Shown in pieces: positions 1-23,452 of a DNA stretch of 64,000 nucleotides. The DNA comes from Promethearchaeota archaeon. GTDB lineage: Archaea > Asgardarchaeota > Lokiarchaeia > Sigyniarchaeales > SOKP01. Below the pieces are notes generated by a model. It ran no database searches and was not told where the DNA came from. It was given only the letters and a program-made list of their open reading frames with translations. The translations under genes and the position numbers were made by a program. Position 1 is the stretch's first letter, and every line of letters starts with the position of its first letter. The stretch covers positions 72,924 through 136,923 of the forward strand of contig RDOA01000003.1 of assembly GCA_011364925.1 (NCBI GenBank), in the 5' to 3' direction.

Positions 1-180
1 TCTTACTATGCTCTTCAAAAAATGAGTAGTTTCATTAGTAACCTCCAAAAAAATACTGATATTTGGAATAAATTACTTAGACATTTTCGAGCAAATCAGA
101 CTATTCAATTGAAAGATTTTCCTTTAATCGATTCCTTAATTACAAATACTTTTCTCGCAGGACATACATCTTCGAAATAA
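1..180 (+). CDS. 3' end (last 59 codons) of a further TPR/longin-like family paralog, truncated by the window edge
   Basis: Frame 1 is open from base 1 to TAA at 178-180. The translation SYYALQKMSSFISNLQKNTDIWNKLLRHFRANQTIQLKDFPLIDSLITNTF... aligns with the C-termini of ORFs 932..2626 and 2782..4464. Confidence 0.75.
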   Translation, partial: SYYALQKMSSFISNLQKNTDIWNKLLRHFRANQTIQLKDFPLIDSLITNTFLAGHTSSK

Positions 181-240
181 TTTTTAACTATGTTTTATTG
201 CGTTCGAATTATTCCCAATTTTCAAGCTGTATCATAGAGA

Positions 241-321
241 ATTGAAACTATCGTGAAACTATCGCGAGCTCAATTATAAATGCAACAATACCTCAAAATC
301 TATTTAGTCATCGTAAAGATG
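241..321 (+). promoter_or_regulatory. Conserved promoter/leader cassette, copy A: tandem TGAAACTATCG x2 (243-264), TATA-like ATTATAAA (273-280), conserved leader GTCATCGTAAAGATGAT with ATG at 319
   Basis: Near-identical to 4502-4582 and related to 8064-8161. The spacing from TATA start to the conserved ATG is 46 nt in all three copies. Confidence 0.6.
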
Positions 322-359
322 ATAAAATTGAGATTTCAATAAAAAAGCGGATTCAGAAA

Positions 360-755
360 ATGACTGAAATTAAAAAATTTACAAAAATCGTGCTTATAGT
401 GGATGCTATTCTTTGGTTCATGTTTACGATATTCCTTATATTTATTTTTGATATGACTATGAATCCTGAGGGTTGGACAAACCCCTATCTCCCAAAATTA
501 TTTGGGGGTGTTATTTTTGTATCTGCTATTTTCGCAATTTTAATGCTTCGTAAAAAAGAATGGGAAGAAATTAAACTGTTATTTGCGTATTTTATAGGGT
601 TACTAATATCGACATTATTCTTTGAAGCTACTGTATTTGCTATTGTAGGATTTGCTTTTGGAACTCTAACGATTATGGTACATTCATTTAATATAACAGT
701 AGAGGCTGTACTTCTAGCGCTTGCAATTATCAGCTGGATAAAACAAAGAGTATAA
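360..755 (+). CDS. small integral membrane protein (about 4 hydrophobic helices), unknown function
   Basis: 131-aa ORF with four long hydrophobic segments. It lies downstream of cassette copy A. The antisense ORF 485..760 looks like a shadow ORF. Confidence 0.6.
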   Translation: MTEIKKFTKIVLIVDAILWFMFTIFLIFIFDMTMNPEGWTNPYLPKLFGGVIFVSAIFAILMLRKKEWEEIKLLFAYFIGLLISTLFFEATVFAIVGFAFGTLTIMVHSFNITVEAVLLALAIISWIKQRV

Positions 756-851
756 AGCAAAAATCAAAATTAAATTTAAAAAATTTTTTTCTTTTTTTGA
801 CATTGAATATCCATTCTAATAGGTATTAGAATTTTAATAGCAGATTGGTGA

Positions 852-931
852 ACATTATATTTAAAACCCAATTTAGCTTATATTAGTAATTATATCCAAA
901 AATGTCTTAAATTAAAATGATTTTTGAGTAG
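852..931 (+). promoter_or_regulatory. Promoter/5' region of the TPR-longin gene, duplicated at 2703-2781
   Basis: ACATTATATTTAAAAC...AATTAGCTTATATTAGTAATTATA...GATTTTTGA.TAGATG is shared almost base for base with 2703-2781. TATA-like AATTATAT sits at 888-895, about 44 nt before the ATG. Confidence 0.55.
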
Positions 932-2626
932 ATGTTTTTTCTTAATCCTGAGATTAAAGGTTTGAATTCAGTTAGGCAACTTATGGAAGATGGGAAAATG
1001 CAGAAAGCCTTCCAAATTGTTTTAGAATTAGAACAAGGAGACGATCTTTCTCCCAAAGAATTACTCTCGTGTAAGCTCGTAAAGGCTAATCTATTACGTG
1101 TAATAGGAAATTATCCAGACGCAATTGAAATTGCTAAGGAAATTTTTCGAGAATTTCAAAAACAAGGTGATTTAGTATCATCGTTAGACGCTTTACTTAT
1201 TCAAGCATATACCTATATGATAACGGTTAATTTAACTCAAAGTGAACATCTTATTCCACAGATAGAAAATTTATTCAAAGCAATTAAAGAACCATTATCA
1301 ATAGATCTCAAAGAAAGAGAATCTTTTTTCTTAAGAATAAAAGCTGCTATTCATTCTCTCAAAGGCGAATTTCAACGATCCTTAGAACTTAACAAAAAAG
1401 CTTATGATCTAGCTAAAGAGACTGGAAACACAGTATTGATTGTTGCGAGTCTTAATAATACTGCTAATGATTATTTCCATATGAAAGAATATGACATGGC
1501 AATAATGTATGGTAAACAAGCTATTAAGAATGATAGTCTAAATTTGGCAGTTGCGTACGCTACCTTAATTGAAACTTATGTCAGCAAGGGAGACATTAAA
1601 GAAGCGATAATTTATCTCGATCGTTTGCATGAATTTTCAGAGAATTACGATTCTAAATGGAATAGAACTTTATATTCCCTAAATAAAGCTTTGATATTAA
1701 AATCAAGTCTCCGAGCAAGAGATCGTATTAAAGCAGAAGATCTATTTAAAAAAATAGCTTTGGACAGTACTGTAGCTGGTACAATGCGGATTGATGCGAT
1801 TATATATTTATGCGATTTATACTTAACTGAACTTCGGATAACTCACGACCCAGAAATAATAAACGAGATTCACCCATATATTCAAGAGTTATTAAGTATT
1901 GCTAAAAAACAAGATTCACATTTATATTTAGCCGAAACTCTACTTTTGCAAGCAAAACTTTCACTATTGACTTTAGATATAAAAGAAGCTAAACGATTTT
2001 TAACTCGAGGCCAAAAAGTAGCAGAATCACATGGTATTAAACAACTAGCAATGAGAATCTCAAACGAACACGATTATTTACTCGGTCAAGAAAAACTCTG
2101 GAATAATTTCAAGCAATCAAAAGTTCCTTTCTCTGAACGCTTGGAACTCGCTGGTTTGAATCAACAGATGGATTATATGACAAAAAGGCAAATATTCACT
2201 ATTCCACAACAACCAGACGAGGAACCGGTGCTCCTTTTATTGCTTTCAGAGGGGGGAGTACCCTTTTTCTCCCACACTTTTGTAGAAGATCGATCCTTCA
2301 AATCGCATCTTTTTGGTGGATTTCTAACCACTATTGATTACTTTATTCGAGAAATGTTTTCTGAAGGATTAGATCGAGCAATCTTTGGAGATTACACACT
2401 TGTTATGAAGTCTCTAACACCTTTTTTTGTTTCCTATATATTTAAAGGTAATTCTTATTACGCTCTCCAAAAAACAGATTATTTTATTGAATGTATTAAG
2501 AAAGATGAGCATATATGGGCAAAACTACTAAAATATCTTCAAGCAAACCAGTCAATTCAATTAAAAGACATCCCTCAACTTGATTCTTTGATAATAGAAA
2601 TCTTTATCCCAGAAAAATCTGTATGA
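932..2626 (+). CDS. TPR-repeat protein with a conserved C-terminal longin/roadblock-like alpha/beta domain (family paralog 1)
   Basis: 564-aa ORF. The N-terminal two thirds are helical TPR-like repeats (e.g. LNNTANDYFHMKEYDMAIMYGKQAI). The C-terminal ~130 aa (nt ~2219-2626, EEPVLLLLLSEGGVPFFSHTF...LFGGFLTTIDYFIREMF...AIFGDYTLVMKSL.PFFVSYIFKG...) has a beta-beta-alpha-beta-beta-beta-alpha pattern. Confidence 0.85.
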   Translation: MFFLNPEIKGLNSVRQLMEDGKMQKAFQIVLELEQGDDLSPKELLSCKLVKANLLRVIGNYPDAIEIAKEIFREFQKQGDLVSSLDALLIQAYTYMITVNLTQSEHLIPQIENLFKAIKEPLSIDLKERESFFLRIKAAIHSLKGEFQRSLELNKKAYDLAKETGNTVLIVASLNNTANDYFHMKEYDMAIMYGKQAIKNDSLNLAVAYATLIETYVSKGDIKEAIIYLDRLHEFSENYDSKWNRTLYSLNKALILKSSLRARDRIKAEDLFKKIALDSTVAGTMRIDAIIYLCDLYLTELRITHDPEIINEIHPYIQELLSIAKKQDSHLYLAETLLLQAKLSLLTLDIKEAKRFLTRGQKVAESHGIKQLAMRISNEHDYLLGQEKLWNNFKQSKVPFSERLELAGLNQQMDYMTKRQIFTIPQQPDEEPVLLLLLSEGGVPFFSHTFVEDRSFKSHLFGGFLTTIDYFIREMFSEGLDRAIFGDYTLVMKSLTPFFVSYIFKGNSYYALQKTDYFIECIKKDEHIWAKLLKYLQANQSIQLKDIPQLDSLIIEIFIPEKSV

Positions 2627-2702
2627 TCTCAATTTGATAGAATCTCAAAAAATGTTTTAATAGGGATATGTTCTTTAAAAAATTGAATATAATCATAAGT
2701 TC

Positions 2703-2781
2703 ACATTATATTTAAAACACAAATTAGCTTATATTAGTAATTATAACCAAAAAGTTTTGGTTTAGCGAGATTTTTGATTAG
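2703..2781 (+). promoter_or_regulatory. Duplicated promoter/5' region of the second TPR-longin gene
   Basis: Near-identical to 852-931. AATTATAA sits at 2739-2746, about 43 nt before the ATG at 2782. Confidence 0.55.
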
Positions 2782-4464
2782 ATGATTCATTTTGATGATA
2801 AAGAACTGATTGAAATCAGTCAAATTATAGAAGAGGGCAAACTGAAGGAAGCTTACCAGGCTATTTTAGAATTGGAGCAAAAAGATGATCTATCTAATAA
2901 AGAAAAAATCTCATGTAAACTCATTAAAGCTAATCTTTTCCGAGTTATGGGACAATATTTGGAATCTATTGAATATGCTGAAACAGTTTTTCAAGAATCT
3001 CAAAAAGGAGGAGATATTCTTTCATCTTTCGATGCTTTAACCATTCAAGCGCATTGCTATACATATATGGTTGACATAATTAAAAGTGAAGAACTTTACA
3101 CTCAAGCACAAGAGATATTTAAAATAATAAAAGAAAGATTTTCCATAGATCTAAGGGAGAGAGAATCTTTCTTGGTAAGGATAAAAGCTGGAATTAACTT
3201 TTTTAAGGGAGATATTAAATCTTATATAAAATTAAATGAGGAGGCTTATGACCTCGCAAAAAATACAAAGAGTGAAAACCTAATTGCTTCTAGCCTTAAC
3301 AACCTTGCTCAAGGTTACTTTCATTTAAAAGAATATGACAAAGCCATACAGTATGCTAAAGAAGCCGTTAAGATTGGAAAATCTTTTACTTTAGCTTATG
3401 CATTAGGAACATTAATTGATATATATCTCGGGATGGGCGATATTAACGAAGCAAAAGCTAATCTTGGAATCTTTCATGATCATGCCAAAGAACTTGGTAC
3501 TGAAAGATACAAAACTCTCTATAATTACTCTAAAGCATCAGTTTTAAAAGCTAGTCTAAGAGCCAGAGACCGTATCAAATCTGAAGATATCTTCCTGAGT
3601 ATTGCATTGGATCATGCAAGACCTAGCGAACAAAGGATTGATGCGATTCTTAGTTTATGTGATTTATACATAACTGAACTTCGGATAACTAATGACCCCG
3701 AAATAATAAACGAGATTCACCCATATATTCAAGAATTGTTAAATATTGCTAAAAAACAACATTCACGTTTATATTTAGCCGAAACATTACTTTTGCAAGC
3801 AAAACTTTCACTACTAACTTTAGATATAAAAGAAACTAAACGATTTTTAAATCAAGGTCAAAAAATAGCAGAATTGTACGGTATTAAACAACTGGCAATG
3901 AGAATCTCAAATGAACATGATAATTTACTCAGTCAAGAAAAAATTTGGGAGAATTTCAAGCAATCAAAAGTACCCTTCTCCGAACGTTTGGAACTCGCCG
4001 GTTTGAATCAACAGATGGATTATATGACGAGAAGGCGAATATCTGTTATCCCACAACAACCCGGCGAGGAACCAGTGCTGCTTTTATTGCTTTCAGAGGG
4101 AGGAGTCCCTTTTTTCTCATACACATTTGGAGAAGATCGATCCTTTAAATCGCATCTTTTTGGTGGATTTTTAACCACTATCGATTACTTTATTCGAGAA
4201 ATGTTTTCTGAAGGATTAGATCGCGCAATCTTTGGAGATTACACTCTTGTCATGAAGTCTGTGACGCCATTTTTCGTTTCCTATATATTTAAAGGCAATT
4301 CTTATTACGCTCTCCAGAAAGCGGATAATTTTATTGATACTATTAAAAACAACGAGCAACTTTGGAAAAAGCTGCTTAAATATTTTCAAGCGAACCAAGC
4401 AATTCAATTAAATGACATCCCTCAACTTGATTCTCTAATAAATGAGGTCTTTATAACAAAATAA
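2782..4464 (+). CDS. TPR-repeat protein with C-terminal longin/roadblock-like domain (paralog 2, tandem duplicate of 932..2626)
   Basis: 560-aa ORF colinear with 932..2626. The 3' ~800 nt are about 90% identical at the nucleotide level by hand alignment, while the 5' half is much more diverged. Confidence 0.85.
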   Translation: MIHFDDKELIEISQIIEEGKLKEAYQAILELEQKDDLSNKEKISCKLIKANLFRVMGQYLESIEYAETVFQESQKGGDILSSFDALTIQAHCYTYMVDIIKSEELYTQAQEIFKIIKERFSIDLRERESFLVRIKAGINFFKGDIKSYIKLNEEAYDLAKNTKSENLIASSLNNLAQGYFHLKEYDKAIQYAKEAVKIGKSFTLAYALGTLIDIYLGMGDINEAKANLGIFHDHAKELGTERYKTLYNYSKASVLKASLRARDRIKSEDIFLSIALDHARPSEQRIDAILSLCDLYITELRITNDPEIINEIHPYIQELLNIAKKQHSRLYLAETLLLQAKLSLLTLDIKETKRFLNQGQKIAELYGIKQLAMRISNEHDNLLSQEKIWENFKQSKVPFSERLELAGLNQQMDYMTRRRISVIPQQPGEEPVLLLLLSEGGVPFFSYTFGEDRSFKSHLFGGFLTTIDYFIREMFSEGLDRAIFGDYTLVMKSVTPFFVSYIFKGNSYYALQKADNFIDTIKNNEQLWKKLLKYFQANQAIQLNDIPQLDSLINEVFITK

Positions 4465-4501
4465 CTTGTTTGATCTCTATTTAGGTAATTGATTAAAAAT
4501 A

Positions 4502-4582
4502 ATTGAAACTATCGCGAAACTATCGATAGCTCAATTATAAATGAGATTTTACCTCCAGATTTAATTAGTCATCGCAAAGATG
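4502..4582 (+). promoter_or_regulatory. Conserved promoter/leader cassette, copy B: GAAACTATCG x2 (4505-4514, 4516-4525), ATTATAAA (4534-4541), leader GTCATCGCAAAGATGAT with ATG at 4580
   Basis: Aligned with copies A and C. Here the conserved ATG is the start of ORF 4580..5332. Confidence 0.65.
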
Positions 4583-5332
4583 ATTACTTTAAATCTAAAC
4601 ACAAGAGAGTTGATAAAAATTAATAGATCAAAAATAGTTAAAAATATAACATTACTTGCGACTATCGGAATTTTACTTCTGGTGTTTTCCACATCAGTGC
4701 AAGGTTGGGGTGGATATAGGAGTCGAATCAATATTAGACCTATAGAGGATTGGAAAGGAGAAGATGTTGTAGGCTGGGCAGATCCAGAATCTGGGTTAGT
4801 TATCCATCCTCAAGCTGTCGAATGGGTCCCCGCTGATCCAGAGAGTCCTAACTTTCCATTTACTCTCTTAGATTGGGAGCGAAAACCCATATGGGAGTGC
4901 GAATATTGGGGAACGATTCTGGAACGAGAATTAGATGATCAAAACACATTAATCTCTATTTATATTTATGTAAAGGAAGTTCCCTTCATGATCTTCACTC
5001 TTACTGGAGCAGATTATATCTATTATCCCCCACTCTATTATGGTGTGATGCAATACTATTTCCAATGCAAGATGCAATTCAATACAGAGTCCCTTTATAA
5101 TATATTTGAAGCTGATGGAAAAATTCCTGCTCTCAATGAAATATTTGGTGCATCCTACGGTTTTTGGCCTTATCCCGAAGAACCAGTTCCACTTGTGACA
5201 TACATGCACATTTTAGGAGTGGGTGAAATAACTGAAGGAGGAGATGGAACTGTATATCTCCATCAACTTGGGATTTTTAACACAGAAATAGGAGATTATG
5301 ATTATCCGTACGAAACGGTAGTCGTTAAGTAG
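4580..5332 (+). CDS. secreted or membrane-anchored protein, unknown function (N-terminal signal/anchor, W/Y/P-rich body)
   Basis: 250-aa ORF. The N-terminus MITLNLNTRELIKINRSKIVKNITLLATIGILLLVFSTSVQG looks like a signal peptide. I recognise no family. Confidence 0.7.
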   Translation: MITLNLNTRELIKINRSKIVKNITLLATIGILLLVFSTSVQGWGGYRSRINIRPIEDWKGEDVVGWADPESGLVIHPQAVEWVPADPESPNFPFTLLDWERKPIWECEYWGTILERELDDQNTLISIYIYVKEVPFMIFTLTGADYIYYPPLYYGVMQYYFQCKMQFNTESLYNIFEADGKIPALNEIFGASYGFWPYPEEPVPLVTYMHILGVGEITEGGDGTVYLHQLGIFNTEIGDYDYPYETVVVK

Positions 5333-5373
5333 AGAGCTTTAGGGCGAGGTTTTATATATTTAAATTACATAAT

Positions 5374-5441
5374 AGAACATGGAGGAATTGGATTAGAAAT
5401 TAAATTTCTACCAATAAACCTCCGTTCTATTTTTTTTTTTT
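5374..5441 (+). terminator. Hairpin plus T11 tract downstream of ORF 4580..5332
   Basis: AGAACATGGAGG (5374-5385) pairs imperfectly with CCTCCGTTCT (5419-5428). An inner palindrome TAGAAATT/AATTTCTA is present, followed by 11 T at 5431-5441. Confidence 0.55.
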
Positions 5442-5534
5442 AATTCCTTAGAAAAGGTAAAATTAATTCAATTGAATAAATATCGAATTCAATTAACTAA
5501 AGTTTTATATTAGGCTATATCTAATTTTACATTA

Positions 5535-6089
5535 ATGACTAATTCTTCTGAATTTGGCTTTAAAATATCTATAATCGGTGATGGCGGGGTTGGTAAGACC
5601 TCCCTAATCAAAAAGTATACAATGGGAACTTTTGAGAAGGATTATGTTAAGACGATAGGTGCTCAATTCTCTAGATATGATCAAGAAATCGATGGAGATC
5701 TAATTAATTTAATATTTTGGGATATCGCAGGTCAGGATGATTTTAAATTCCTGCATCCTTTATTTTATAAAGAGAGCCGAGCTGCTATTATTGTATATAG
5801 TCTTGAAGAAAATGATTTAGGTAATGATAGCTACAAGCATATAATCAATTGGTATAACGAATTAAAGAAATATTGTGGAATTATTCCTGTGGTTATTATT
5901 GCCAATAAAATTGATTTAATTAATCAATCTGAGTTGGATGAGTTTGCAATTCAAAATTTAGTCAAAGAAAATAACTTTCTTGGATATTTTATTACTTCTG
6001 CAAAAACAGGCGAGGGAGTAATAGATGCTTTTAACGCAATTATCAAAAACTTATACTATAAGTATAAAGATTTATCTAGCTCTCAGTAG
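5535..6089 (+). CDS. Rab/Ras-like small GTPase
   Basis: G1 GDGGVGKTS, G2 YVKTIGAQF, G3 WDIAGQ, G4 NKID, G5 TSAKTG. 184 aa, with no C-terminal Cys (no prenylation box). Confidence 0.9.
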   Translation: MTNSSEFGFKISIIGDGGVGKTSLIKKYTMGTFEKDYVKTIGAQFSRYDQEIDGDLINLIFWDIAGQDDFKFLHPLFYKESRAAIIVYSLEENDLGNDSYKHIINWYNELKKYCGIIPVVIIANKIDLINQSELDEFAIQNLVKENNFLGYFITSAKTGEGVIDAFNAIIKNLYYKYKDLSSSQ

Positions 6090-8004
6090 CGTGATTTAAA
6101 GGTATCAAAGATCTATGTTCCTCTATCTCTGCGAGAAAAAGGTCTACAATTGCTAACCATTTATTTTTTGATTCCAAATCGCTTATAATTTTGCTTGTTA
6201 ATTCTTTTCCTCTCTTAAGATTTTGTACAGCTAATTCAAAATTTTCGAGAGCTGTATAACAAATTCCAATTTTGATATAAGTCTGATAGATAAACCAATC
6301 GTTAGAATCAATTTCTATGGCTTTTTGGAATTCATTTATCGCTTCTTCGTATTCTTTAAAGTTTATTAAAATTTCTCCGAATGTATCGTGGAAAATTCCA
6401 TTTTCTGGTTCTTTTTTTACGAGTTCCCGAAGAAGTTCCAATGCTTCTTGTTCTTTATCTAAATAAGATAACCAATACGCTTTATAATTATGAAGCAGAG
6501 TATTGTTTGGATATTTTTCGATTAAATCTTCAATAATTTTTAAGCCTTCTTCTAAGTTTTTATCTTTTTTAAGAGTATAAGCTTTTTTTATCGTAATATC
6601 TATCTCTTTTTTAGGAAATATCTCGAACATGTTTTCTAGTACCATTAAAACATCGTTATACTGATTAAAATAGAGTAAAATTCGTACTTTTGAATTGTAT
6701 AAATCGTAATTCTTTGGACTTAATTCAATTTCATTTTCTATTTCTTTAATTTTCTCTTTGTATTGAGATTCAAATGTTTCAGAATTCTGCGATTGCATTA
6801 TCTCCGTCATGTTCTGCCAAATAATTCCTTCTAGTTTATCGTATGTCTCTACTAATTCTTTTTTTATCTCAATTTTATATGCTAGATATTCCATATACTC
6901 TGGTAAAAATTCTCTTAATGGTTCCTCGAAATCCTTATGAAATAAAAATTGACATACTTCTTCGAGAATATCGTCAATCATCGAATTCATACTTCCTAAT
7001 TCAGCAAATTTTTCTAAATATTTGTTTGCTGCTATATGTTCTTCCGTAATAGCTCGAAGAATTTTCTCTAATTTTTCGTCAAAATGGAAATAGTACCGTT
7101 TCTTGGGGGAAATATCTAAAATAAAAAACTTTAAGTCGTAGAATTCGCTTTCTACAATCTCATGTACCCAATAATCAAGCATTCTCTTCTCTATTTTGTA
7201 AAATCTCGAAAAATCCTCAAAAGATAAGTAATCAGGATAAAAATCGGGATGATTTATTGAAATAAAGAGCAAAATTTTGTAAAAATCCTCCTCATCTTTT
7301 AAGATTGAGTTAACTTTTAAATAATCTAATTTTAAAACCTTATTGAGAAATCTAAATTTTACACGATCGTCAATAATATTGAACTTATCGAAGAAATGCG
7401 ACGCTTTTACAGTGATTTCGTCTATTCGCTTTCTTTCTTCTTCTAAAATTGTTTGTCTGTCTAAATTATAATTTTGTAGAATCCTCGAATATTCTATTTT
7501 CCCTAATTGAGTAATGATATATCTTTTGTTTTCTCTGACGATAAATCCCTTTTGAATTAATAAACTTAGAGTTTTTGATAAAGAGGACTGATTTATAGAG
7601 AAAGGTTTTTCAAGAAAATCAGACCTTTTACAAAACCCATTATTGTACACCATCCAAATAATCCAGTGGGCATAATTTCGCCCTCTCTTCAAAATGACAT
7701 CAGGGGGGAAACTTAGTTTTCGTTCCCTGGTTCTTTCTCTTGATAATTCTTGAAATTTTTGTTCCCCTTCTGGAGTTATCTGGTATTGTCCTCTAGAAAG
7801 TTTCTCTACGAAGCCTTTGAGGATTAATTTTGTTAAATGACGGGAAATTGTAGATATGGGAATTTCAAGCGGTTTTTGTTCGAAATAGGACCATTCACAA
7901 CTTTCATTATTCTTTAACATCCAAAGAATAATATGGTCATAGTTTGGCCTTTTCAGTTTAGAGGAATTAAGAATCTCATCGGAAGGATAATTTATTTTGC
8001 TCAT
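6076..8004 (-). CDS. protein with two N-terminal winged-helix DNA-binding-like domains and C-terminal TPR repeats
   Basis: An internally duplicated N-terminus (ILWMLKNNESCEWSYF...ISRHLTKLILKGFVEK and IIWMVYNNGFCKRSDF...LSKTLSLLIQKGFIVR) resembles MarR/PadR-type wHTH. The C-terminus has TPR-like repeats (AIEIDSNDWFIYQTYIKIGICYTALENFELAV). The 3' end overlaps the GTPase 3' end by 14 bp. Confidence 0.75.
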   Translation of the reverse strand: MSKINYPSDEILNSSKLKRPNYDHIILWMLKNNESCEWSYFEQKPLEIPISTISRHLTKLILKGFVEKLSRGQYQITPEGEQKFQELSRERTRERKLSFPPDVILKRGRNYAHWIIWMVYNNGFCKRSDFLEKPFSINQSSLSKTLSLLIQKGFIVRENKRYIITQLGKIEYSRILQNYNLDRQTILEEERKRIDEITVKASHFFDKFNIIDDRVKFRFLNKVLKLDYLKVNSILKDEEDFYKILLFISINHPDFYPDYLSFEDFSRFYKIEKRMLDYWVHEIVESEFYDLKFFILDISPKKRYYFHFDEKLEKILRAITEEHIAANKYLEKFAELGSMNSMIDDILEEVCQFLFHKDFEEPLREFLPEYMEYLAYKIEIKKELVETYDKLEGIIWQNMTEIMQSQNSETFESQYKEKIKEIENEIELSPKNYDLYNSKVRILLYFNQYNDVLMVLENMFEIFPKKEIDITIKKAYTLKKDKNLEEGLKIIEDLIEKYPNNTLLHNYKAYWLSYLDKEQEALELLRELVKKEPENGIFHDTFGEILINFKEYEEAINEFQKAIEIDSNDWFIYQTYIKIGICYTALENFELAVQNLKRGKELTSKIISDLESKNKWLAIVDLFLAEIEEHRSLIPLNHATES

Positions 8005-8063
8005 GATAGTTGAAAACTTAGTCTTATGATTAATTATGAATATTTATATTTATATCTATTTTT

Positions 8064-8161
8064 CGAAACTTCCACTTTTTTTCGGAATTTCCGTGGAATT
8101 ATCGGAAGCTTAATTATATATGCAAATTTATCTCAAGATTTAATTAATCATCGTAAAGATG
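8064..8161 (+). promoter_or_regulatory. Conserved promoter/leader cassette, copy C (diverged): GGAATTTCCG/GGAATTATCG (8084-8104), ATTATATA (8113-8120), leader ATCATCGTAAAGATGAT with ATG at 8159
   Basis: Same architecture and the same 46-nt TATA-to-ATG spacing as copies A and B. Confidence 0.55.
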
Positions 8162-8192
8162 ATAAAATCTAATATAACTGAAAAAAAAAGAG

Positions 8193-8741
8193 TTGATTAA
8201 AATTAATAGAACAAAATTAGTACCAAAATTAATACTAGTACTCTTAGTATTTACCACTATAACTGGCTTTGCATTTACTTTTGTTGTAGCTAAAGGAGAT
8301 CAAAGGGCAAGTAGATTATCTTTTACAGCTACAGAAACTATGATATGGCCAGATGGTTGGGTTCCTATAGGTGATCCATGGGGTGATGGTAAGTTCATAC
8401 ATCAGATGTACTATAAAAAAGCAATTCTTGATGGCACAATTGAGGAAATAGGGGACTTTTCAGGGTATGATGAATTATATTTGCATGTTAAAATGGACCC
8501 AAATACCTTTGAGGTTATAAGCATTGGTAAAGTAACGATGTATATCTTTTGCGATAACGGACTAGAAGGAACTTTTTATGGATCTGTTATTGCGAAGGGT
8601 ACAGCTGGCTTTGGTCCTTTCGACGGTAAATATACGTTGCAAGGAGCTGGAGGATTTGAAGGAATGAAGCTTTTTGGTATAGTCTGGCTTGAAAGTGGTC
8701 TAGTAAACGGACTTTCTGGTACAATCTTAATCCCAAATTAA
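8193..8741 (+). CDS. secreted protein, unknown function (TTG start as drawn; the conserved ATG at 8159 is out of frame by one base across an A9 tract)
   Basis: 182-aa ORF. The N-terminus (M)IKINRTKLVPKLILVLLVFTTITGFAFTFVVAKG is signal-like and matches ELIKINRSKIV of ORF 4580. Confidence 0.65.
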   Translation: MIKINRTKLVPKLILVLLVFTTITGFAFTFVVAKGDQRASRLSFTATETMIWPDGWVPIGDPWGDGKFIHQMYYKKAILDGTIEEIGDFSGYDELYLHVKMDPNTFEVISIGKVTMYIFCDNGLEGTFYGSVIAKGTAGFGPFDGKYTLQGAGGFEGMKLFGIVWLESGLVNGLSGTILIPN

Positions 8742-8765
8742 AATCAAGAATAAAGGTGAATTCAA

Positions 8766-9854
8766 ATGCAAAAATCAATGCAAAGAAAACTATTGTTGAT
8801 GTTTCTCCTTGGTTCAATATTTTTCGTAATTCCTATTGCGAGCTCTAATGGAACTACATTCACTCCAAAGAAGGTTGCAGAACAATCTCTGTCCGGTGCT
8901 ACAACTCACGTTTATTTGGATGGAGATTACGCATTCATGGGAGTTGGAACATCCGGTCTGGCCATCGTTGATATTTCCCACCCGAAAAATCCAGGAACCC
9001 CGGTCTATAGAGACACCTCCGGCAGGGCGTATAACCTTTGGGTAGAGGGAGGCTACGCCTATGTGGCAGATTTTGATAAGGGTTTAGCTGTCATTGATGT
9101 TTCCGACCCAACAAACCCAGGACCTGCTACGCACGTACTAACAACCCAAGCTTGTGGTGATGTATGTGTTAGTGGAAATTACGCTTATGTGGACGGTGGT
9201 GGCTTAGCGGTTATCGACATTTCTGACCCAGTGCATCCGAACCTGGTCGTAACCAAACCTTTAACTGGAATTCCGTATGGTCTTTGCGTGAGTGGAGAAT
9301 ACGCATACATAGCAACTGCTGATACTGGTTTGGCGATCGTCAATATTTCCGATCCGACCAATCCAGGAACTCCCATTTACGAAGATACGACCGGAACTGC
9401 GTGGGATGTGTGTGTAAGTGGCGGTTACGCCTATGTAACAACCGGTAGTACCGGTTTAGCGATTATCGATGTTTCCGACCCGACAAATCCGGGAACGCCT
9501 GTTTATAGAGACACGACAGGAACTGCATATTTTATTTTTCTAAACGGAAGTTACGCCTATATAGCGGCTGATACTGGAGGCGTGGCGATCATTGATGTAT
9601 CCGACCCGACAAATCCGGGAACGCCGACCTATATAGATGTGGAAGGTCAAGCAATTGATGTGTATGTCAGGGGAGACTATGCTTATGTGGCGGATGAACA
9701 TTACGGCTTGAAAGTCTACGATCTTTTCTATACTACTCCAGAACCTGGTATTCCATTCGATAATTTCTACTTATTATTTATTGGGTTTAGCGTACTATGC
9801 TTAGTATTCATCGTTTCAAAAAAACGCAAAATTACTAGTGAATCTCAAAAATAA
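8766..9854 (+). CDS. LVIVD-repeat (beta-propeller) surface protein with C-terminal TM anchor
   Basis: About 8 repeats of G(L/V)A(I/V)(I/V)D(I/V)SDPTNPG...Y.DT.G.A..V.V.G.YAYV. There is an N-terminal signal peptide, and the C-terminus is PEPGIPFDNFYLLFIGFSVLCLVFIVSKKRK. An AGGTGA Shine-Dalgarno motif precedes the ATG. Confidence 0.85.
   Translation: MQKSMQRKLLLMFLLGSIFFVIPIASSNGTTFTPKKVAEQSLSGATTHVYLDGDYAFMGVGTSGLAIVDISHPKNPGTPVYRDTSGRAYNLWVEGGYAYVADFDKGLAVIDVSDPTNPGPATHVLTTQACGDVCVSGNYAYVDGGGLAVIDISDPVHPNLVVTKPLTGIPYGLCVSGEYAYIATADTGLAIVNISDPTNPGTPIYEDTTGTAWDVCVSGGYAYVTTGSTGLAIIDVSDPTNPGTPVYRDTTGTAYFIFLNGSYAYIAADTGGVAIIDVSDPTNPGTPTYIDVEGQAIDVYVRGDYAYVADEHYGLKVYDLFYTTPEPGIPFDNFYLLFIGFSVLCLVFIVSKKRKITSESQK
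8950..9720 (+). repeat. Coding tandem repeats (~120 bp period) encoding the LVIVD blades
   Basis: Recurrent DNA strings, e.g. GATGTTTCCGACCCGACAAATCCGGGAACGCC at ~9469 and ~9589, with diverged copies near 9097 and 9343. Confidence 0.8.
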
Positions 9855-10170: not shown

Positions 10171-12246
10171 TTGTCTCATTCAAAACCTCAAGAATTGGTT
10201 CAGGTAAAACGACTCATTGATCTCGTAAGATTTGATGAAGCTAACCAATTAATTAAAGAGTTTGAGGAAAAACAAGGTCATGCTCTGTATGATGAAGTAC
10301 TATGTAATCTTTTCATGTGTGACATATTATATTACCAAGGATTATATGATGAGGTTATCAAGCTTGCGGAACAAACCTATAAAGAGAGTTTAAAATTAGG
10401 AAAAAACCTACTGTCAGTTGATGCCTTACTAAGAATGGCAGGTGCGTTATCTGGGCATCGTCAATGGGAAAAATTCTGCGATAGGATTAAGCAAGGAGAA
10501 GAGCTGTTAAAGTCATTGACACATGAATTACCAGAAGAATACAAACGAAGAAAGGCTTATTTAGCTCAACTGAAAGGAGATTATTACGAAGTAAAAAATA
10601 AGTTAGATAAGTCAATACAGCAGTTTGAAATCAGTATATCATTGTACGAAGAACTTGGCAATAAAATAGAGATTGTTTGGCCTATTTTAGGAATTGCCAC
10701 CGTGTTTTATTGGCATAAAGGCGATTTTGACGGTGCTTTAAAATATTTGGAGCGAGGGCTAGCAATCGCTAAGGAAAGCGGAAATATAAGGTGTATCGGG
10801 GCTTGTCTTAACCAGATGGCATATGTTCATTTTCTTAAAGGTGAGTTTGATCGCAGTATTATGCTTTTTGAGAAGAGCTTGACAATCTTCGAAGAAACTA
10901 ACCTTGACCTCTGGAGAGCAAGAATTTTTTGTCTTCTAGGGGAATGTTATGCAATGAAAGGGGAAATTAATCGTAGCATTAGATTTTTCGAACAAAGTTT
11001 AGAACTTTGGAAAAAAATAAAACATAAACCCATGATGGCTGATATCTTGAATAATGTATCTGAGTGTTATAGAATGAAAGGAGAATTTGAACATGCGTTA
11101 GAGTGTATAGAACAATCAATGGAGTTAAATCATGAGTTGGGAAACTTGGAAAGATTAGCTAATAATCACCTCTATTTTATTAAGATTTTAATTGATAGGG
11201 GTGAACTTACACGAGCATGGAGCTCTCTTCGTGATTTGGAGCAATTGAACAATCAATTAAAAGACAAAAAAATAAATTATTATTATCTATTTGTTAAAGC
11301 TTTACTATTGAAAACAAGTATGCGAGCCCGTAATAGAGTAAAAGCTGAAGAAATTTTCAATCAACTCCTCGAAGAGGAGTTATATATGGATTTAGATTAT
11401 GAATTGAATATGGGATCTCTTTTAAATTTATGCGAATTACTCCTTATTGAATTGCGCCTGATTAACGATGAAGAAATACTAGACGAAATTAATCCTCTAC
11501 TTGTTCAACTATTGAACAGCGCTGAAAAGTCAAATTCATACTGGATACTTGGTGAAACCTATCTGCTGAGAGCAAAACTCTCACTTTTAACCTTTGATGT
11601 TAAGAAGGCACAACTATTTTTAACCCAAGCTCAGAAGATCGCAGAATCGCACGGGATTAAACGACTAGCAATGCAAATTTCATATGAACACGATGAATTG
11701 CTTAAAAAAGCAAAAGTTTGGGAGAATTTAAAAGAGACAGAAGCACCATTATCAAAACGTTGGGAATTAGCTGGGTTAAACGAACAAATAGAGAAAATGG
11801 TTTGGAAACGAATAGTAGAATCTCCTGAAATCTCTGAAGAAGACCCCGTTATGATATTAATCTTAACTGAGGGTGGTAATCTTTTGTTCTCACAAAAATT
11901 TGTATCGGATTTTTCTTTTGAAGAAGATCTTCTGGGGAGCTTTTTAACTACGACACATTACTTTATTAATGCCGCCTTTTCTGAGGGCCTTGATAGAGCT
12001 GTTTTTGGTCAATATACTCTTCTTATGACGCCCCTTCAACCGTTTTTAATATGTTACATCTTTAAAGGGCACTCCTATTCTGCTCAATTTAAAATTACAA
12101 GTTTTATAGATTCTATACAAAAGGATAGAGATGTTTGGCAAACCTTACAAAAATTCTTCCAATTGAGCAGATCTGTTCACATAAACGATGTACCGATGCT
12201 AGATTCATTGATATCAAATATCTTTACTAAGAAAGTTTCTCAGTAG
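10171..12246 (+). CDS. TPR-repeat protein with C-terminal longin/roadblock-like domain (paralog 3, longer TPR array)
   Basis: 691-aa ORF with a TTG start. It has many TPR-like units (e.g. LNQMAYVHFLKGEFDRSIMLFEKSL). The C-terminal domain EDPVMILILTEGGNLLFSQKF...LLGSFLTTTHYFINAAFSEGLDRAVFGQYTLLMTPLQPFLICYIFKG is homologous to paralogs 1 and 2. Confidence 0.85.
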   Translation: MSHSKPQELVQVKRLIDLVRFDEANQLIKEFEEKQGHALYDEVLCNLFMCDILYYQGLYDEVIKLAEQTYKESLKLGKNLLSVDALLRMAGALSGHRQWEKFCDRIKQGEELLKSLTHELPEEYKRRKAYLAQLKGDYYEVKNKLDKSIQQFEISISLYEELGNKIEIVWPILGIATVFYWHKGDFDGALKYLERGLAIAKESGNIRCIGACLNQMAYVHFLKGEFDRSIMLFEKSLTIFEETNLDLWRARIFCLLGECYAMKGEINRSIRFFEQSLELWKKIKHKPMMADILNNVSECYRMKGEFEHALECIEQSMELNHELGNLERLANNHLYFIKILIDRGELTRAWSSLRDLEQLNNQLKDKKINYYYLFVKALLLKTSMRARNRVKAEEIFNQLLEEELYMDLDYELNMGSLLNLCELLLIELRLINDEEILDEINPLLVQLLNSAEKSNSYWILGETYLLRAKLSLLTFDVKKAQLFLTQAQKIAESHGIKRLAMQISYEHDELLKKAKVWENLKETEAPLSKRWELAGLNEQIEKMVWKRIVESPEISEEDPVMILILTEGGNLLFSQKFVSDFSFEEDLLGSFLTTTHYFINAAFSEGLDRAVFGQYTLLMTPLQPFLICYIFKGHSYSAQFKITSFIDSIQKDRDVWQTLQKFFQLSRSVHINDVPMLDSLISNIFTKKVSQ

Positions 12247-14522: not shown

Positions 14523-14669
14523 ATACCCTAGAGAAAAAAAAGCAATTTAGCTTTAATTTTTTTTAATCCTTTTACTATTCTATCATACCATAAGTATAAA
14601 GGCAATAGCATCTTCAATTTTTAATGGTCATCTGTATTAATGACAAAAAAGTAAAAATGGTAGTAGATA

Positions 14670-15191
14670 ATGGAACAAAAAATGGAACAAGATATTTTTT
14701 TAAAATTTGATGAAGCTATTCAGAAACTGGAAAAGAATTTACCAAATGAAATGCCTAGTGGGTGTGCAGAAGCAACTATGAAAAACATTTTGAACATATT
14801 AGGAATGGAAGAAACATTGATAGATAATATTATGATCCCCTTATCTGGGGGATTTGGTGGCTACAAGTCAGAAGAGGGGAGGTTTGGACCATGTGGGGCT
14901 GTAGTTGGAGGCTGTGGAGCTGTTGGGTTAATCTTAGCTGGAAAAGAAAAAATGGATCAAAGTAAAGTGCTTCCTGCTTATTTAAAATCAGCACAATTTG
15001 CTAAAGAATTCGAGAAGGAATTCGGTTCAATAGTTTGTCCAAATCTATCTGGATATGATTTCAGTGATCCTAATAATATTATGAAATACATGGAAGAGGG
15101 AGTCTGGGGGAAAAAATGCTATAAATATGTGTTGTGGGCAATTGATAACATAAGAAAACTCATGAGAAAAGAACTGAAAAAGAATTGGTAA
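14670..15191 (+). CDS. C_GCAxxG_C_C-family putative redox-active protein
   Basis: GPCGAVVGGCGAVG core with flanking conserved Cys (SGCAEA..., IVCPNL, KKCYKY). Confidence 0.55.
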   Translation: MEQKMEQDIFLKFDEAIQKLEKNLPNEMPSGCAEATMKNILNILGMEETLIDNIMIPLSGGFGGYKSEEGRFGPCGAVVGGCGAVGLILAGKEKMDQSKVLPAYLKSAQFAKEFEKEFGSIVCPNLSGYDFSDPNNIMKYMEEGVWGKKCYKYVLWAIDNIRKLMRKELKKNW

Positions 15192-21278: not shown

Positions 21279-21842
21279 TTAGGTAGGCTTTCGTTTCCAA
21301 ATTTTCATCGATTCAAAAATGAATACACAGGTGCAATAACTTATAAAAAACAAAAAAAGTAGGCTAGCTGGATTTGTTATAAACACATCACCATACAGGA
21401 TTGCAAGATATGCGTACAATATTACACCTAAAATATTAATAACTAAGTATAAAGAATATCGGGGAATCATAAGAGGTCCTATGCGAAAGTAAAAACCTAA
21501 TATGCCTTTTTTAACTCCTTCCTTTACAAAATATTTACCATCTTTATCTTTTTTTGAAATAATCCCTGCTTTCATTAATTTATCTAATTGATATGCTACC
21601 GTTCCAGAAGAGACCATCTTTAATGCCTTCTGAATTTCCCTTACTCCCGCGCTATGATGAGTCAAAATGTACCAATAGATTTGTAGAGTCTTTCCTTGTA
21701 ATATTTTTTTATGATTATTCTTTAGAGCTTCTGCTTCTACCTCAAGATCTGACATCGCAAGGAAGGTTTCATTGTTTGATTTAGATGATATAGGTGTTAT
21801 TGCAGGACTTTCGTTTATATACTTTCGTCTTCTTGGGGTCAT
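21279..21842 (-). CDS. membrane-tethered winged-helix (ArsR/PadR-like) protein
   Basis: wHTH-like YWYILTHHSAGVREIQKALKMVSSGTVAYQLDKLMKAGIISK followed by 2-3 hydrophobic helices. Its ATG overlaps the stop of the upstream beta-helix gene (ATGA at 21839-21842). Confidence 0.65.
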   Translation of the reverse strand: MTPRRRKYINESPAITPISSKSNNETFLAMSDLEVEAEALKNNHKKILQGKTLQIYWYILTHHSAGVREIQKALKMVSSGTVAYQLDKLMKAGIISKKDKDGKYFVKEGVKKGILGFYFRIGPLMIPRYSLYLVINILGVILYAYLAILYGDVFITNPASLLFLFFISYCTCVFIFESMKIWKRKPT

Positions 21843-23452
21843 AAAAACTCTATGTCCTCTTGAGGTTTTCTAAATCTTTTACGATTTTGATATATTATAA
21901 AAACAGAAACTGCAATGATTGTACTACTAATAACGAGAATAGTTGGCAAGTAATTTAACGATGGTGTAATGGGTGGGAGTGTACAATCATTATCTTCGAT
22001 TACATTTCCTTGACAATTAAATTCAACGATGCATTCATCATTTCCTATTAAACTATTACCCGAAATAGTGTTATAACTACTAGTGTAAAGAACTAATCCC
22101 CACTGGTTGTAATTTGCGGTGTTTCCCGAAATGGTGTTATAAATGCTTTCGATTAGAATTATCCCACATTCTATATTATTAAGTGCGGTGTTTCCTGAGA
22201 GGGTGTTATAACTGCAACCTACTAAACATATCCCACTCCAATTATTGTTATTTACAATGTTTCCTGAAATGATATTATTTTTACTATTTTCAAAACAAAT
22301 CCCATGAAACCTTTTAATGTTATTCGCCGTGTTTTCTGAAATAGTATTATTGTCACAATTGATTAAATATAGCCCACCATAATAGTAATTGTAATTAGCA
22401 ACGTTTCCCGAAATAGTATTATTATTGCTATCCCATATCATTAACCCCGAGCAATTATTAGTATTTGCGGCATTTTCTGAAATATAATTGTTATTACTAT
22501 TGTCTAAGAATATCCCATAATAGGTGTTGTTATTCACGGTGTTTCCCGAAATAACACTATTATTACAATAATGTAATGAAATACCAATAGTAGTATAAGA
22601 TATGTTCAAGTTTGATATTAATGACCCACTGCAGTTGACTAAAATCAATTGTCCAGCATTTGGAAAATCGGTTGATCTTAGATTTTCTTGGTTAGTACAA
22701 TAATATACTGGTTTGCCATTCACTAGATTTGTTGTATCTATCTCAGTTGAAAGTAATATCTCAAGATTTCCAATTATTCTAAACCCACATTCATACATTA
22801 AATTTTCCGTAAAAACATTATTAAAACCTTTAGTTTGGTCCGATAGCCATCCCTGCAACGCAATTCCAGAATAGGTATTACTTATCGTGTTTCCTGAAAT
22901 GGTATTGTTACCACTACCGTATAAAGCTATCCCATAACCATAATTATCTTTTACGATATTTCCTGAAATGATGCTATTATTACAATTCCATAAACGGATT
23001 CCCTTATTGTTATTATTGGAACAATTATTGTTAAGTAGTTGTCCATTATTTACATCAACTAATTTTATTCCAGCATCGTCAAAACCTTCTCCAGAATTAA
23101 AAAGAGTACAATTTTCAATTCGAAAATAAACTTCGGAATTATCAATCCAGATGCAACTTCCCGAATTTTCACCATCTATTTCTAAATCTTCAATAATATA
23201 AGGATCAGAATAAATCCCATTCCCCGTACATATTCCATCTTCTTTAGCAACCGTCCAATTAATACTTGGATTGTCATCATCTATATGAATTTTTCCTGAT
23301 ACTGCTGGGGTTTTTGGTTTTTCGTTGTCAGAATCAATTACCTCATTGTCATCAGGAATAAAACTTGAATTAATATTAATCATTCCCACTAAAGCGAAAA
23401 TGATTCCTAAAGTGATTAAAACTGTTATTATTAATTTTGCATTTGATTTCAT
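21839..23452 (-). CDS. parallel beta-helix (PbH1/NosD-like) repeat surface protein with C-terminal TM anchor
   Basis: Signal anchor, then CTGNGIYSDPYIIEDL, then more than 10 repeats of ISGN.(V/A).NN. The DNA shows a ~66-69-bp periodic string GTGTTTCC(C/T)GAAAT. The C-terminal TM is followed by RKRFRK. Confidence 0.8.
   Translation of the reverse strand: MKSNAKLIITVLITLGIIFALVGMININSSFIPDDNEVIDSDNEKPKTPAVSGKIHIDDDNPSINWTVAKEDGICTGNGIYSDPYIIEDLEIDGENSGSCIWIDNSEVYFRIENCTLFNSGEGFDDAGIKLVDVNNGQLLNNNCSNNNNKGIRLWNCNNSIISGNIVKDNYGYGIALYGSGNNTISGNTISNTYSGIALQGWLSDQTKGFNNVFTENLMYECGFRIIGNLEILLSTEIDTTNLVNGKPVYYCTNQENLRSTDFPNAGQLILVNCSGSLISNLNISYTTIGISLHYCNNSVISGNTVNNNTYYGIFLDNSNNNYISENAANTNNCSGLMIWDSNNNTISGNVANYNYYYGGLYLINCDNNTISENTANNIKRFHGICFENSKNNIISGNIVNNNNWSGICLVGCSYNTLSGNTALNNIECGIILIESIYNTISGNTANYNQWGLVLYTSSYNTISGNSLIGNDECIVEFNCQGNVIEDNDCTLPPITPSLNYLPTILVISSTIIAVSVFIIYQNRKRFRKPQEDIEFL

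Follow-up and report, generated by a model that had tools for sequence, protein, structure and literature searches.

The window analyzed here is a 64,000-nucleotide (64-kb) stretch of contig RDOA01000003.1 from a Promethearchaeota archaeon, with a GC content of ~31%. It contains three copies of a cassette, a regulatory element of ~95-130 bp that precedes several small genes for secreted or membrane proteins beside genes for Ras-like GTPases. The direct copies of ~93 nt lie at 231-323 (copy A), 4492-4584 (copy B), and 8071-8163 (copy C). They align without gaps over 93 nt, the two other copies being 82% and 70% identical to copy A, and the three-copy alignment reveals sharp boundaries and unrelated flanks. 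Each copy stands upstream of a plus-strand gene. Target gene A (360..755) encodes a 131-residue protein with four transmembrane (TM) segments, which is the commonest cassette target in other genomes. Target gene B (4580..5332) encodes a 250-residue, β-rich secreted protein with a signal peptide, and target gene C (8193..8741) a 182-residue signal-peptide protein that is secreted or anchored. Copies A and B follow the stop codons of tetratricopeptide repeat (TPR) genes, the former a gene whose 3′ end occupies 1-179 and the latter the second of two tandem TPR paralogs (932..2626 and 2782..4464). Copy C is divergent from a minus-strand gene (6076..8004, locus tag EAX91_02095) for a 642-residue protein with two winged-helix domains and TPR repeats, which is the candidate cognate regulator and belongs to paralog group 1. 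These positions confirm the arrangement given in the initial annotation of this DNA. A Ras-family GTPase is encoded at 5535..6089 (plus strand).

From 5′ to 3′, the cassette consists of an optional upstream unit (unit 0), two 11-bp units, a transcription factor B recognition element (BRE)/TATA-like box, a 25-nt spacer, a 6-bp hairpin, an A-rich leader, and the target gene. All of these elements lie on the plus strand in the window. In copy A, the tandem units (TGAAACTATCG twice) occupy 243..264 and are followed by the box AGCTCAATTATAAATG at 267..282, with its TATA 8-mer at 274-281, and by the hairpin or palindrome GTCATC-GTAAA-GATGAT at 307..323. Copy B has the units TGAAACTATCG and CGAAACTATCG at 4504..4525, the same box AGCTCAATTATAAATG at 4528..4543, and the hairpin GTCATC-GCAAA-GATGAT at 4568..4584, which includes an ATG at 4580. 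The units of both copies are of the AAC class. Those of copy C, CGGAATTTCCG and TGGAATTATCG at 8083..8104, are of the AAT class that accompanies group-1 regulators; the box AGCTTAATTATATATG follows at 8107..8122 and the hairpin ATCATC-GTAAA-GATGAT, with an ATG at 8159, at 8147..8163. Copy C also has a unit 0 (CGAAACTTCCA, 8064..8074), which adjoins the regulator's own promoter and is kept as AGAACTTCCA at other loci. The divergent promoter region of the regulator gene (8005..8063) contains a TATA-like TATTTATATTTATATC and is conserved at related loci. The tandem units end 8 bp upstream of the TATA 8-mer. The three boxes share the consensus AGCTYAATTATAWATG, and the leader core TCATCGYAAAGATGAT is found at 308-323, 4569-4584, and 8148-8163.

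Within the window, the leader core occurs three times against 0.19 expected, a count reached in none of 100 shuffles, and the double unit occurs twice against 0.00 expected. With counts so far above expectation and an ungapped alignment, the architecture first described for this DNA, in which all three copies share units, a BRE/TATA-like box, and a leader, is well founded. The constant spacing between TATA box and ATG that was also noted is identical in the three copies, and in every related copy as well. A nhmmer search of the window with a cassette profile returns only these copies and a weak match at 14591-14635 (E = 0.2), and relaxed unit and palindrome patterns give no credible further copies in the window. 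The weak match is a degenerate fourth copy on the plus strand (~14591-14644) that has no units and consists of a TATA-like box, 25 nt, and GTCAT..ATGAC. It lies upstream of a gene for a C_GCAxxG_C_C protein (14670..15191).

Beyond the window, ~40 cassette copies are found in conserved register on ~35 Asgard (Lokiarchaeota/Promethearchaeota) contigs, designated here by L numbers. One scan covered one genome per species with a leader-anchored pattern (TTATA-N27-31-TCATCGYAAAGATGAT) from which the units were absent. It yielded ten loci, five of which come from different Promethearchaeota metagenome-assembled genomes and contain tandem units together with a downstream box, AAAGAGTTGAW. The five bacterial loci have nothing else in common with the cassette and were rejected as chance matches to a short pattern. 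Another scan, of metagenome contigs, used the pattern TATCGNNAGMTYAATTATAWATG, which is anchored on unit 2 and the TATA box. Of its 24 contigs, 22 have both unit 1 and the hairpin leader in register, neither of which was scanned for; the remainder are one chance match in coding DNA and L012, where units and TATA box precede a different leader, so that the cassette is modular. A nhmmer profile built from these copies adds second copies in L021, L027, L035, and L012. Because the metagenome pattern contained the BRE/TATA box, independent support for the box comes from the leader-anchored matches and from loci fetched by protein similarity. Copy number per genome is known only from contig fragments. 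A genome-wide motif search had been proposed as a check; the scans show that the cassette is not private to this genome. No description of the cassette motif or of the regulator was found in the literature searched. Rfam 15 gives no matches at gathering thresholds over the 64 kb, and at permissive thresholds the sole match with E < 5 in region 1-9000 is a chance match to U4.

The ~40 copies show which parts of the element are constrained. There are no indels from unit 1 through the hairpin (~75 nt), and the distance between AATTATAWATG and TCATC is 25 nt in the window copies and related copies alike. The box AGCTYAATTATAWATG, or AACTATAWATG in group 1, is conserved in all of them, as expected of an archaeal BRE/TATA core promoter. 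Mean pairwise identity is 0.85 for the units, 0.92 for the 5′ arm of the hairpin with the preceding TTAATTA, and 0.90 for the 3′ arm with the following AAA, compared with 0.59 for the five loop positions and 0.68 for the spacer between TATA box and start. The same block-wise pattern is observed among 18 representatives that are <85% identical to one another. Just downstream of the hairpin, the leader is variable, A-rich, and rich in length changes, mostly in an A-run of 5-11 bases, and carries a Shine-Dalgarno (SD)-like GAG(G/T)TGAT box. The element always points into an open reading frame (ORF) 40-110 nt away, and all copies have one orientation relative to the downstream gene. A miniature inverted-repeat transposable element or other mobile element was considered and rejected, as the cassette ends are not complementary and neither terminal repeats nor a flanking duplication appear in the three-copy alignment.

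The core of what had been described as a conserved leader is a 6-bp hairpin or palindrome, ATCATC-N5-GATGAT, which was previously unnoticed. In 38 of 40 copies exactly 25 nt separate it from the TATA box, and group-1 cassettes maintain this distance despite a diverged spacer sequence. The hairpin is the minimum free energy feature of every leader folded. Across the copies, 99.4% of the alignment cells are paired, four of the six pairs never vary, and the outer pair alternates between A-U and G-U. One pair shows a compensatory change, ATCACC...GGTGAT in L027b and L038, which is probably a single event; the covariation score is reached by 15 of 500 shuffles. At two loci the hairpin is re-registered, as ATCAA-ATTG-TTGAT in L020 and as TGATC-ATCATA-GATCA in L021b. 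A C/D-box or kink-turn reading of GATGAT was rejected by eye, the arms being fully complementary with no consistent D box.

In archaeal promoters the TATA 8-mer is centered at about -26/-27, and transcription starts ~22-27 nt downstream of the TATA box. By this geometry, the start is predicted to lie 0-5 nt before the 5′ arm, at ~302-307 in copy A, ~4563-4568 in copy B, and ~8142-8147 in copy C. If the hairpin thus forms the very 5′ terminus of the mRNA, the invariant 25-nt distance would be accounted for as well. What passed for a mere leader is thus a hairpin or palindrome at the predicted start site.

The 3′ arm contains an NTG codon in 39 of 40 copies (ATG, with GTG or TTG in three copies). 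The ORF that it opens has 3-20 codons, its frame and stop are not conserved, and its peptide is conserved only as M-I-K/N; in copy A the ATG at 319-321 opens the seven-codon upstream ORF (uORF) MIKLRFQ*. The frame stays open into the main gene in five of 40 copies, copy B among them. Since frame and stop are not conserved, conservation is at the nucleotide level, and a coding uORF or an N-terminal extension from the hairpin ATG was rejected. The leader ATGs at 319 and 8159 are not the starts of 360..755 and 8193..8741, being out of frame or stopped; only copy B has its hairpin ATG in frame. The B- and C-type genes likely start at a TTG (GTG in L027b) inside the GAGTTGAT box, and the conserved start of target gene B is probably the TTG at 4610 rather than the ATG at 4580.

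Several details of the leaders are recorded here in their own right. The distal leader of copy C (8164..8200, plus strand) contains an A9 run (8181-8189) as well as an SD-like GAGTTGAT box, and the ORF begins at the TTG (8193) within this box. Because of the A9 run, the hairpin ATG and the TTG-started ORF 8193..8741 are in different frames; removal of a single A would join them as MIKSNITEKKELIKINR..., as in copy B. Across loci the run varies from 5 to 11 bases and is unequal even in the near-identical L028 and L030. A canonical GAGGTGA Shine-Dalgarno box stands 3 nt before the ATG of the genes for ~230-residue secreted proteins (leaders of L005, L010, L013, L016, L022, L025, L026, L031, L035, and L038-L041), in a lineage reported to use such sites rarely, and the TGA of this box often serves as the stop codon of the uORF opened by the hairpin ATG. 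A second RNA helix, in which AAATTTAA would pair with GTTGAAT and sequester the SD-like box, can be drawn in some leaders. It was rejected, as the value over 33 copies is 0.43 against 0.36 for shuffles (19/33).

The candidate regulator has tandem winged-helix domains (residues ~26-86 and ~115-169), which stem from an internal duplication, and TPR repeats. Its Pfam matches for winged helix-turn-helix (wHTH) domains are HTH_45, MarR, HTH_34, and HVO_A0261_N only; a TrmB-type HTH match falls below the cut-off (E = 3e-4, 20.9 bits vs 25.6). A sequence search of the PDB with the N-terminal part returns only generic wHTH matches with E > 0.1. The family has more than 900 members, all labeled as Asgard archaea. 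Its link to the cassette is one of position. Of 42 copies, 27 have a divergently oriented double-wHTH/TPR gene on their upstream side, with its start codon at a distance of 79-81 nt; this is the layout of a divergent regulator-operator pair with an adjacent DNA-binding gene. In the reverse direction, all five regulator homologs picked by protein similarity alone have a cassette upstream, as does a second paralog in L038. The usual locus comprises the regulator and, divergently, the cassette, a 230-residue secreted protein and/or the four-TM protein, a TPR protein, and a Ras-like GTPase. An operator for a dedicated factor, with the product of 6076..8004 as the candidate, had been suggested from the sequence of this window; the conserved register, the 27/42 linkage, and the 5/5 reverse test now argue strongly for it.

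The regulators fall into two groups, one 70-84% identical to the gene in the window (group 1) and the other 55-65% identical (group 2), and both occur within one genome in L038 and L040. Group-1 genes always face AAT-class units, GGAATTWYCG (the CGGAATTTCCG/TGGAATTATCG type), in window copy C, L036, L038a, L039, L040a, and L041. Group-2 genes always face AAC-class units, GRAACTATCG, at no fewer than 20 loci. The AAT class is thus present in all six group-1 lineages, and unit class tracks paralog group without exception. Group-specific residues are found in both predicted recognition helices, and the pattern would fit two regulators with two specificities, although physical linkage could produce it just as well. 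L040 also contains, at 14180-14441, a third and more distant regulator paralog (632 residues) with the upstream unit variants TCGGAACTATCA/TAGGACTACGA and TCGGAACTCTCA/TGAAACCGCTA, the latter of which stands before a TATA box; this suggests a wider family of regulator-operator pairs.

Turning to the targets, protein B belongs to an Asgard-only family of 28 homologs that corresponds to no Pfam family. Its AlphaFold2 (AF2) model is confident and β-rich, with a predicted local distance difference test (pLDDT) score of 85.5, and has no significant structural neighbor in the PDB. Orthologous pairs of cassette and B-type gene occur in L011 and L023. Proteins B and C have only an N-terminal LIKINR(S/T)K(I/L)V stretch in common (13/28 identities by BLASTP). 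The shared N-terminal signal region initially ascribed to all three products is real for B and C; the likeness of A to B and C consists mostly of cassette nucleotides read in different frames. Similarly, the view that the cassette serves a set of exported proteins agrees with several secreted or membrane targets, but not with L033, where a C_GCAxxG_C_C gene carries a cassette. Satellite copies precede B-type genes, the four-TM gene, uncharacterized genes, and this L033 gene, which is the ortholog of 14670..15191. It has a full cassette, in contrast to the degenerate TATA box, 25 nt, and hairpin-like remnant of the window version.

Some copies are old. Copy B and the L011 copy share variable positions (AGATTTTAYCTCCAGA, the loop GCAAA, and ATGATTA), and both lie between a TPR gene and a B-type gene, although identity between the B proteins is no more than 42%. 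Copies similar to copy A are present in L016 and L031. These likenesses indicate that the duplications predate the divergence of the genomes and that each copy has been kept since. The alternative offered at the outset, a portable expression and secretion module, is also partly borne out by the satellites before unrelated genes and by the B/C stretch, which continues into the first ~12 signal-peptide codons.

Of the surrounding genes, an LVIVD-repeat protein gene (8766..9854) lies 3′ of target gene C, and a further TPR gene and a second GTPase gene follow downstream of it. The GTPase gene 5535..6089 and the regulator gene converge with a 14-nt overlap at 6076-6089. The TPR proteins share a conserved C-terminal domain of ~130 residues, encoded at 2237-2623, 4075-4461, and 11848-12243. 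The label "longin" for this domain is unconfirmed, as there is no Pfam match and an AF2 model from three sequences has a pLDDT of 47 and is unusable. A 51-nt promoter-like repeat (ACATTATATTTAAAAC...), 94% identical between its two copies at 852-902 and 2703-2753, stands before the TPR paralogs 932..2626 and 2782..4464; each of these genes thus possesses a TATA-like box distinct from that of the cassette. The proposal that the exported proteins are co-regulated with the GTPase modules is unsupported; both TPR and GTPase genes have such boxes of their own. Farther along, the minus-strand ORF 21839..23452 (537 residues) contains eight periodic repeats of ~69-72 nt at 22104-22939 and probably encodes a repeat protein.

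Taken together, comparison across the copies makes it probable that the cassette is a lineage-specific, regulon-type promoter of Lokiarchaeal archaea, combining an operator for the adjacent regulator with a hairpin at the start site. The divergently encoded double-wHTH/TPR protein would bind the tandem units, plausibly with one winged helix per 11-bp unit. Positioned directly upstream of the BRE, it would control recruitment of TATA-binding protein (TBP) and transcription factor B (TFB), whether as an activator or as a repressor, and through unit 0 it may also control its own divergent promoter. Two paralogous regulators would read the two unit variants, GRAACTATCG in copies A and B and GGAATTWYCG in copy C. 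Transcription would begin ~23-27 nt after the TATA box, leaving the hairpin as the extreme 5′ end of the mRNA. There it would most likely stabilize the transcript and/or occlude the 5′-proximal start codon; alternatively, the palindrome may be a second DNA operator. Satellite copies would have arisen from old duplications of a segment with operator, promoter, and leader, extended in the B and C types by the n-region of the signal peptide, and would have recruited other genes for small secreted or membrane proteins of the GTPase/TPR neighborhood into the regulon. The comparisons show the anatomy and its conservation, the rigid register, the linkage to the regulator gene, the two unit classes, and the orthology of copies between genomes; where transcription starts, that this particular regulator binds, in which direction it acts, and what the hairpin does are inferred.

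Several observations weigh against this reading. Because a gene and its upstream region are inherited together, linkage confounds the correspondence of unit class with regulator group. The window contains no group-2 regulator gene, although copies A and B have group-2 units; such a gene is thus predicted in the DNA immediately preceding the window. The hairpin shows no more than one or two covariation events, and its invariant arms fit sequence-specific recognition, whether of a DNA operator or of the start codon, no worse than they fit a pure RNA stem. Finally, conservation of the cassette over its whole 95 nt is roughly level with that of adjacent coding DNA (0.7-0.8). With overall identity no higher than this, the argument for selection rests on the block pattern, the lack of indels, and survival across deep paralogs.

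The competing explanation that deserves most attention makes the palindrome TCATC-N5-GATGA a DNA operator over the start site, bound by a dimeric winged-helix repressor that blocks RNA polymerase, with the upstream units as a separate site. We regard this as possible, though on balance unlikely. It accounts for arms that are almost invariant around a free 5-nt spacer and for strict phasing to the TATA box, even where the spacer of group-1 cassettes has diverged. The Thermococcales glycolytic motif, an N5-spaced palindrome downstream of the TATA box, provides a precedent, and the sub-threshold TrmB-type match of the regulator points the same way. The variants, however, preserve pairing (ATCACC/GGTGAT in L027b and L038, and the re-registered hairpins of L020 and L021b) and not half-sites or the N5 spacing, the A-U/G-U alternation of the outer pair is strand-specific, and no second DNA-binding gene is conserved at the locus. 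Arm invariance thus favors sequence recognition, whereas the pairing-preserving variants and the G-U alternation favor RNA. Less probable still is that the functional unit is the short uORF M-I-K/N... opened by the hairpin NTG, which would control the main ORF by coupling, re-initiation, or A-run slippage. Such a role agrees with the constant position at which 39 of 40 copies have ATG, GTG, or TTG and then ATW, with uORFs that in several L5sec-type loci end at the TGA within the GAGGTGA box, 3-4 nt before the main ATG, with the copies whose frame stays open into the main ORF, and with the difference in A-run length between L028 and L030. It is hard to reconcile with uORFs of such varied length that conserve no frame, stop, or peptide beyond M-I-K/N, with L021b, which has no start codon at that position, or with the two first-base changes (to G and to T), which are compatible with chance.

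The remaining explanations are far weaker. A conserved stretch of ~60 nt that is predicted to be transcribed and to form a stable hairpin would suit a small non-coding RNA or a riboswitch-like sensor that is expressed independently from its own promoter and lies upstream of genes by coincidence. We consider this very improbable: Rfam searches are negative at both gathering and permissive thresholds, conserved pairing is limited to a single 6-bp helix and the proposed second helix is no better than shuffles, no terminator-like T-run follows, and the element always points into a nearby ORF. The least credible proposal is a decaying remnant of segmental duplication with no present function. Copies A and B do both follow TPR paralogs that are tandem duplicates, and overall cassette identity is similar to that of coding DNA. 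Against this stand the unrelated flanks and sharp boundaries of the three copies, orthologous copies that persist in many genomes beside diverged target proteins, block-wise conservation with free positions between the blocks and zero indels, and survival of the cassette across regulator paralogs only ~58% identical. The related contigs, moreover, are not near-clonal (third-codon identity 0.34-0.76). The promoter with an operator and a start-site hairpin remains the preferred reading.

To our knowledge, gene regulation in Asgard archaea is almost wholly unexplored, as are the processes controlled by the many Ras-like GTPase/TPR modules of these organisms. The cassette offers a handle on both, with a DNA motif in two variants, a candidate regulator in two groups, and a short list of targets (the four-TM protein and Asgard-only secreted proteins), and with motif, regulators, and targets all in one conserved neighborhood with GTPases. 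A more ambitious view is that the cassette forms the transcriptional output of Asgard small-GTPase signaling: the TPR part of the regulator would sense the state of the nearby Ras-like GTPase/TPR proteins, the two paralogs would switch two sets of surface or secreted proteins by way of the two unit classes, and the hairpin, with a sequestered start codon, and the variable A-run would add a post-transcriptional, possibly phase-variable layer. We rate this as speculative and distinctly unlikely. Were a functional link to the GTPases established, its interest would extend to eukaryogenesis; otherwise the cassette would be an ordinary, well-delimited promoter of an archaeal regulon.

The cassette resembles several known systems in part. 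In some archaeal promoters, activator or repressor sites lie directly upstream of the BRE/TATA region, for example the upstream activating sequence of the Ptr2/Lrp type and TFB-RF1. In the cassette, repeated short sites likewise abut the BRE, and a winged-helix regulator presumably acts on TBP/TFB recruitment. The cassette differs in that its sites are 11-bp direct repeats and in that its candidate regulator, unlike the dimers or octamers of the Lrp/Ptr2 type, combines two wHTH domains and TPR repeats in one chain. The glycolytic motif of Thermococcales, TATCAC-N5-GTGATA, is read by TrmBL1/Tgr, and when downstream of the TATA box it lies over the start site. Like the cassette, this regulon-defining motif has inverted hexamers spaced by N5 close to the core promoter, and a winged-helix protein as regulator or candidate regulator. 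The cassette arms differ (ATCATC-N5-GATGAT), their variants keep pairing, and the candidate has TPR repeats in place of the TrmB sugar-binding domain. Bacterial promoters of the OmpR/PhoB and Streptomyces antibiotic regulatory protein (SARP, AfsR-type) classes have direct repeats one helical turn apart, and AfsR-type SARPs combine a wHTH domain with TPR repeats. The cassette shares with these promoters direct repeats that recur every 11 bp right before the core promoter, and with the AfsR-type SARPs a candidate regulator that has both wHTH and TPR parts. It differs in its archaeal TBP/TFB promoter and in a candidate regulator with two wHTH domains in one chain, in place of a head-to-tail dimer; these domains are of the MarR/HTH_45 type, with no Trans_reg_C.

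As in divergent autoregulated pairs of the MarR/IclR type, a single short intergenic region with putative operator sites at fixed spacing is shared by regulator and target; here, in contrast, extra satellite copies of operator and promoter occur in the neighborhood, and the regulator is a protein of ~640 residues with a TPR module. The hairpin is reminiscent of the 5′-terminal stabilizer stem-loops of bacterial mRNAs, such as that of the ompA 5′ untranslated region, being a short stem-loop that lies a few nucleotides from the predicted 5′ end and whose distance from the promoter is strictly fixed. It departs from these in that the start site of the cassette is inferred and the stem also contains a start codon. 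In kind, then, the cassette would appear to be an archaeal promoter with an operator and a divergent regulator. What sets it apart is a single-chain regulator with two wHTH domains matched to tandem repeats, a rigidly placed start-site hairpin that contains a start codon, and an Asgard neighborhood of GTPase and TPR genes.

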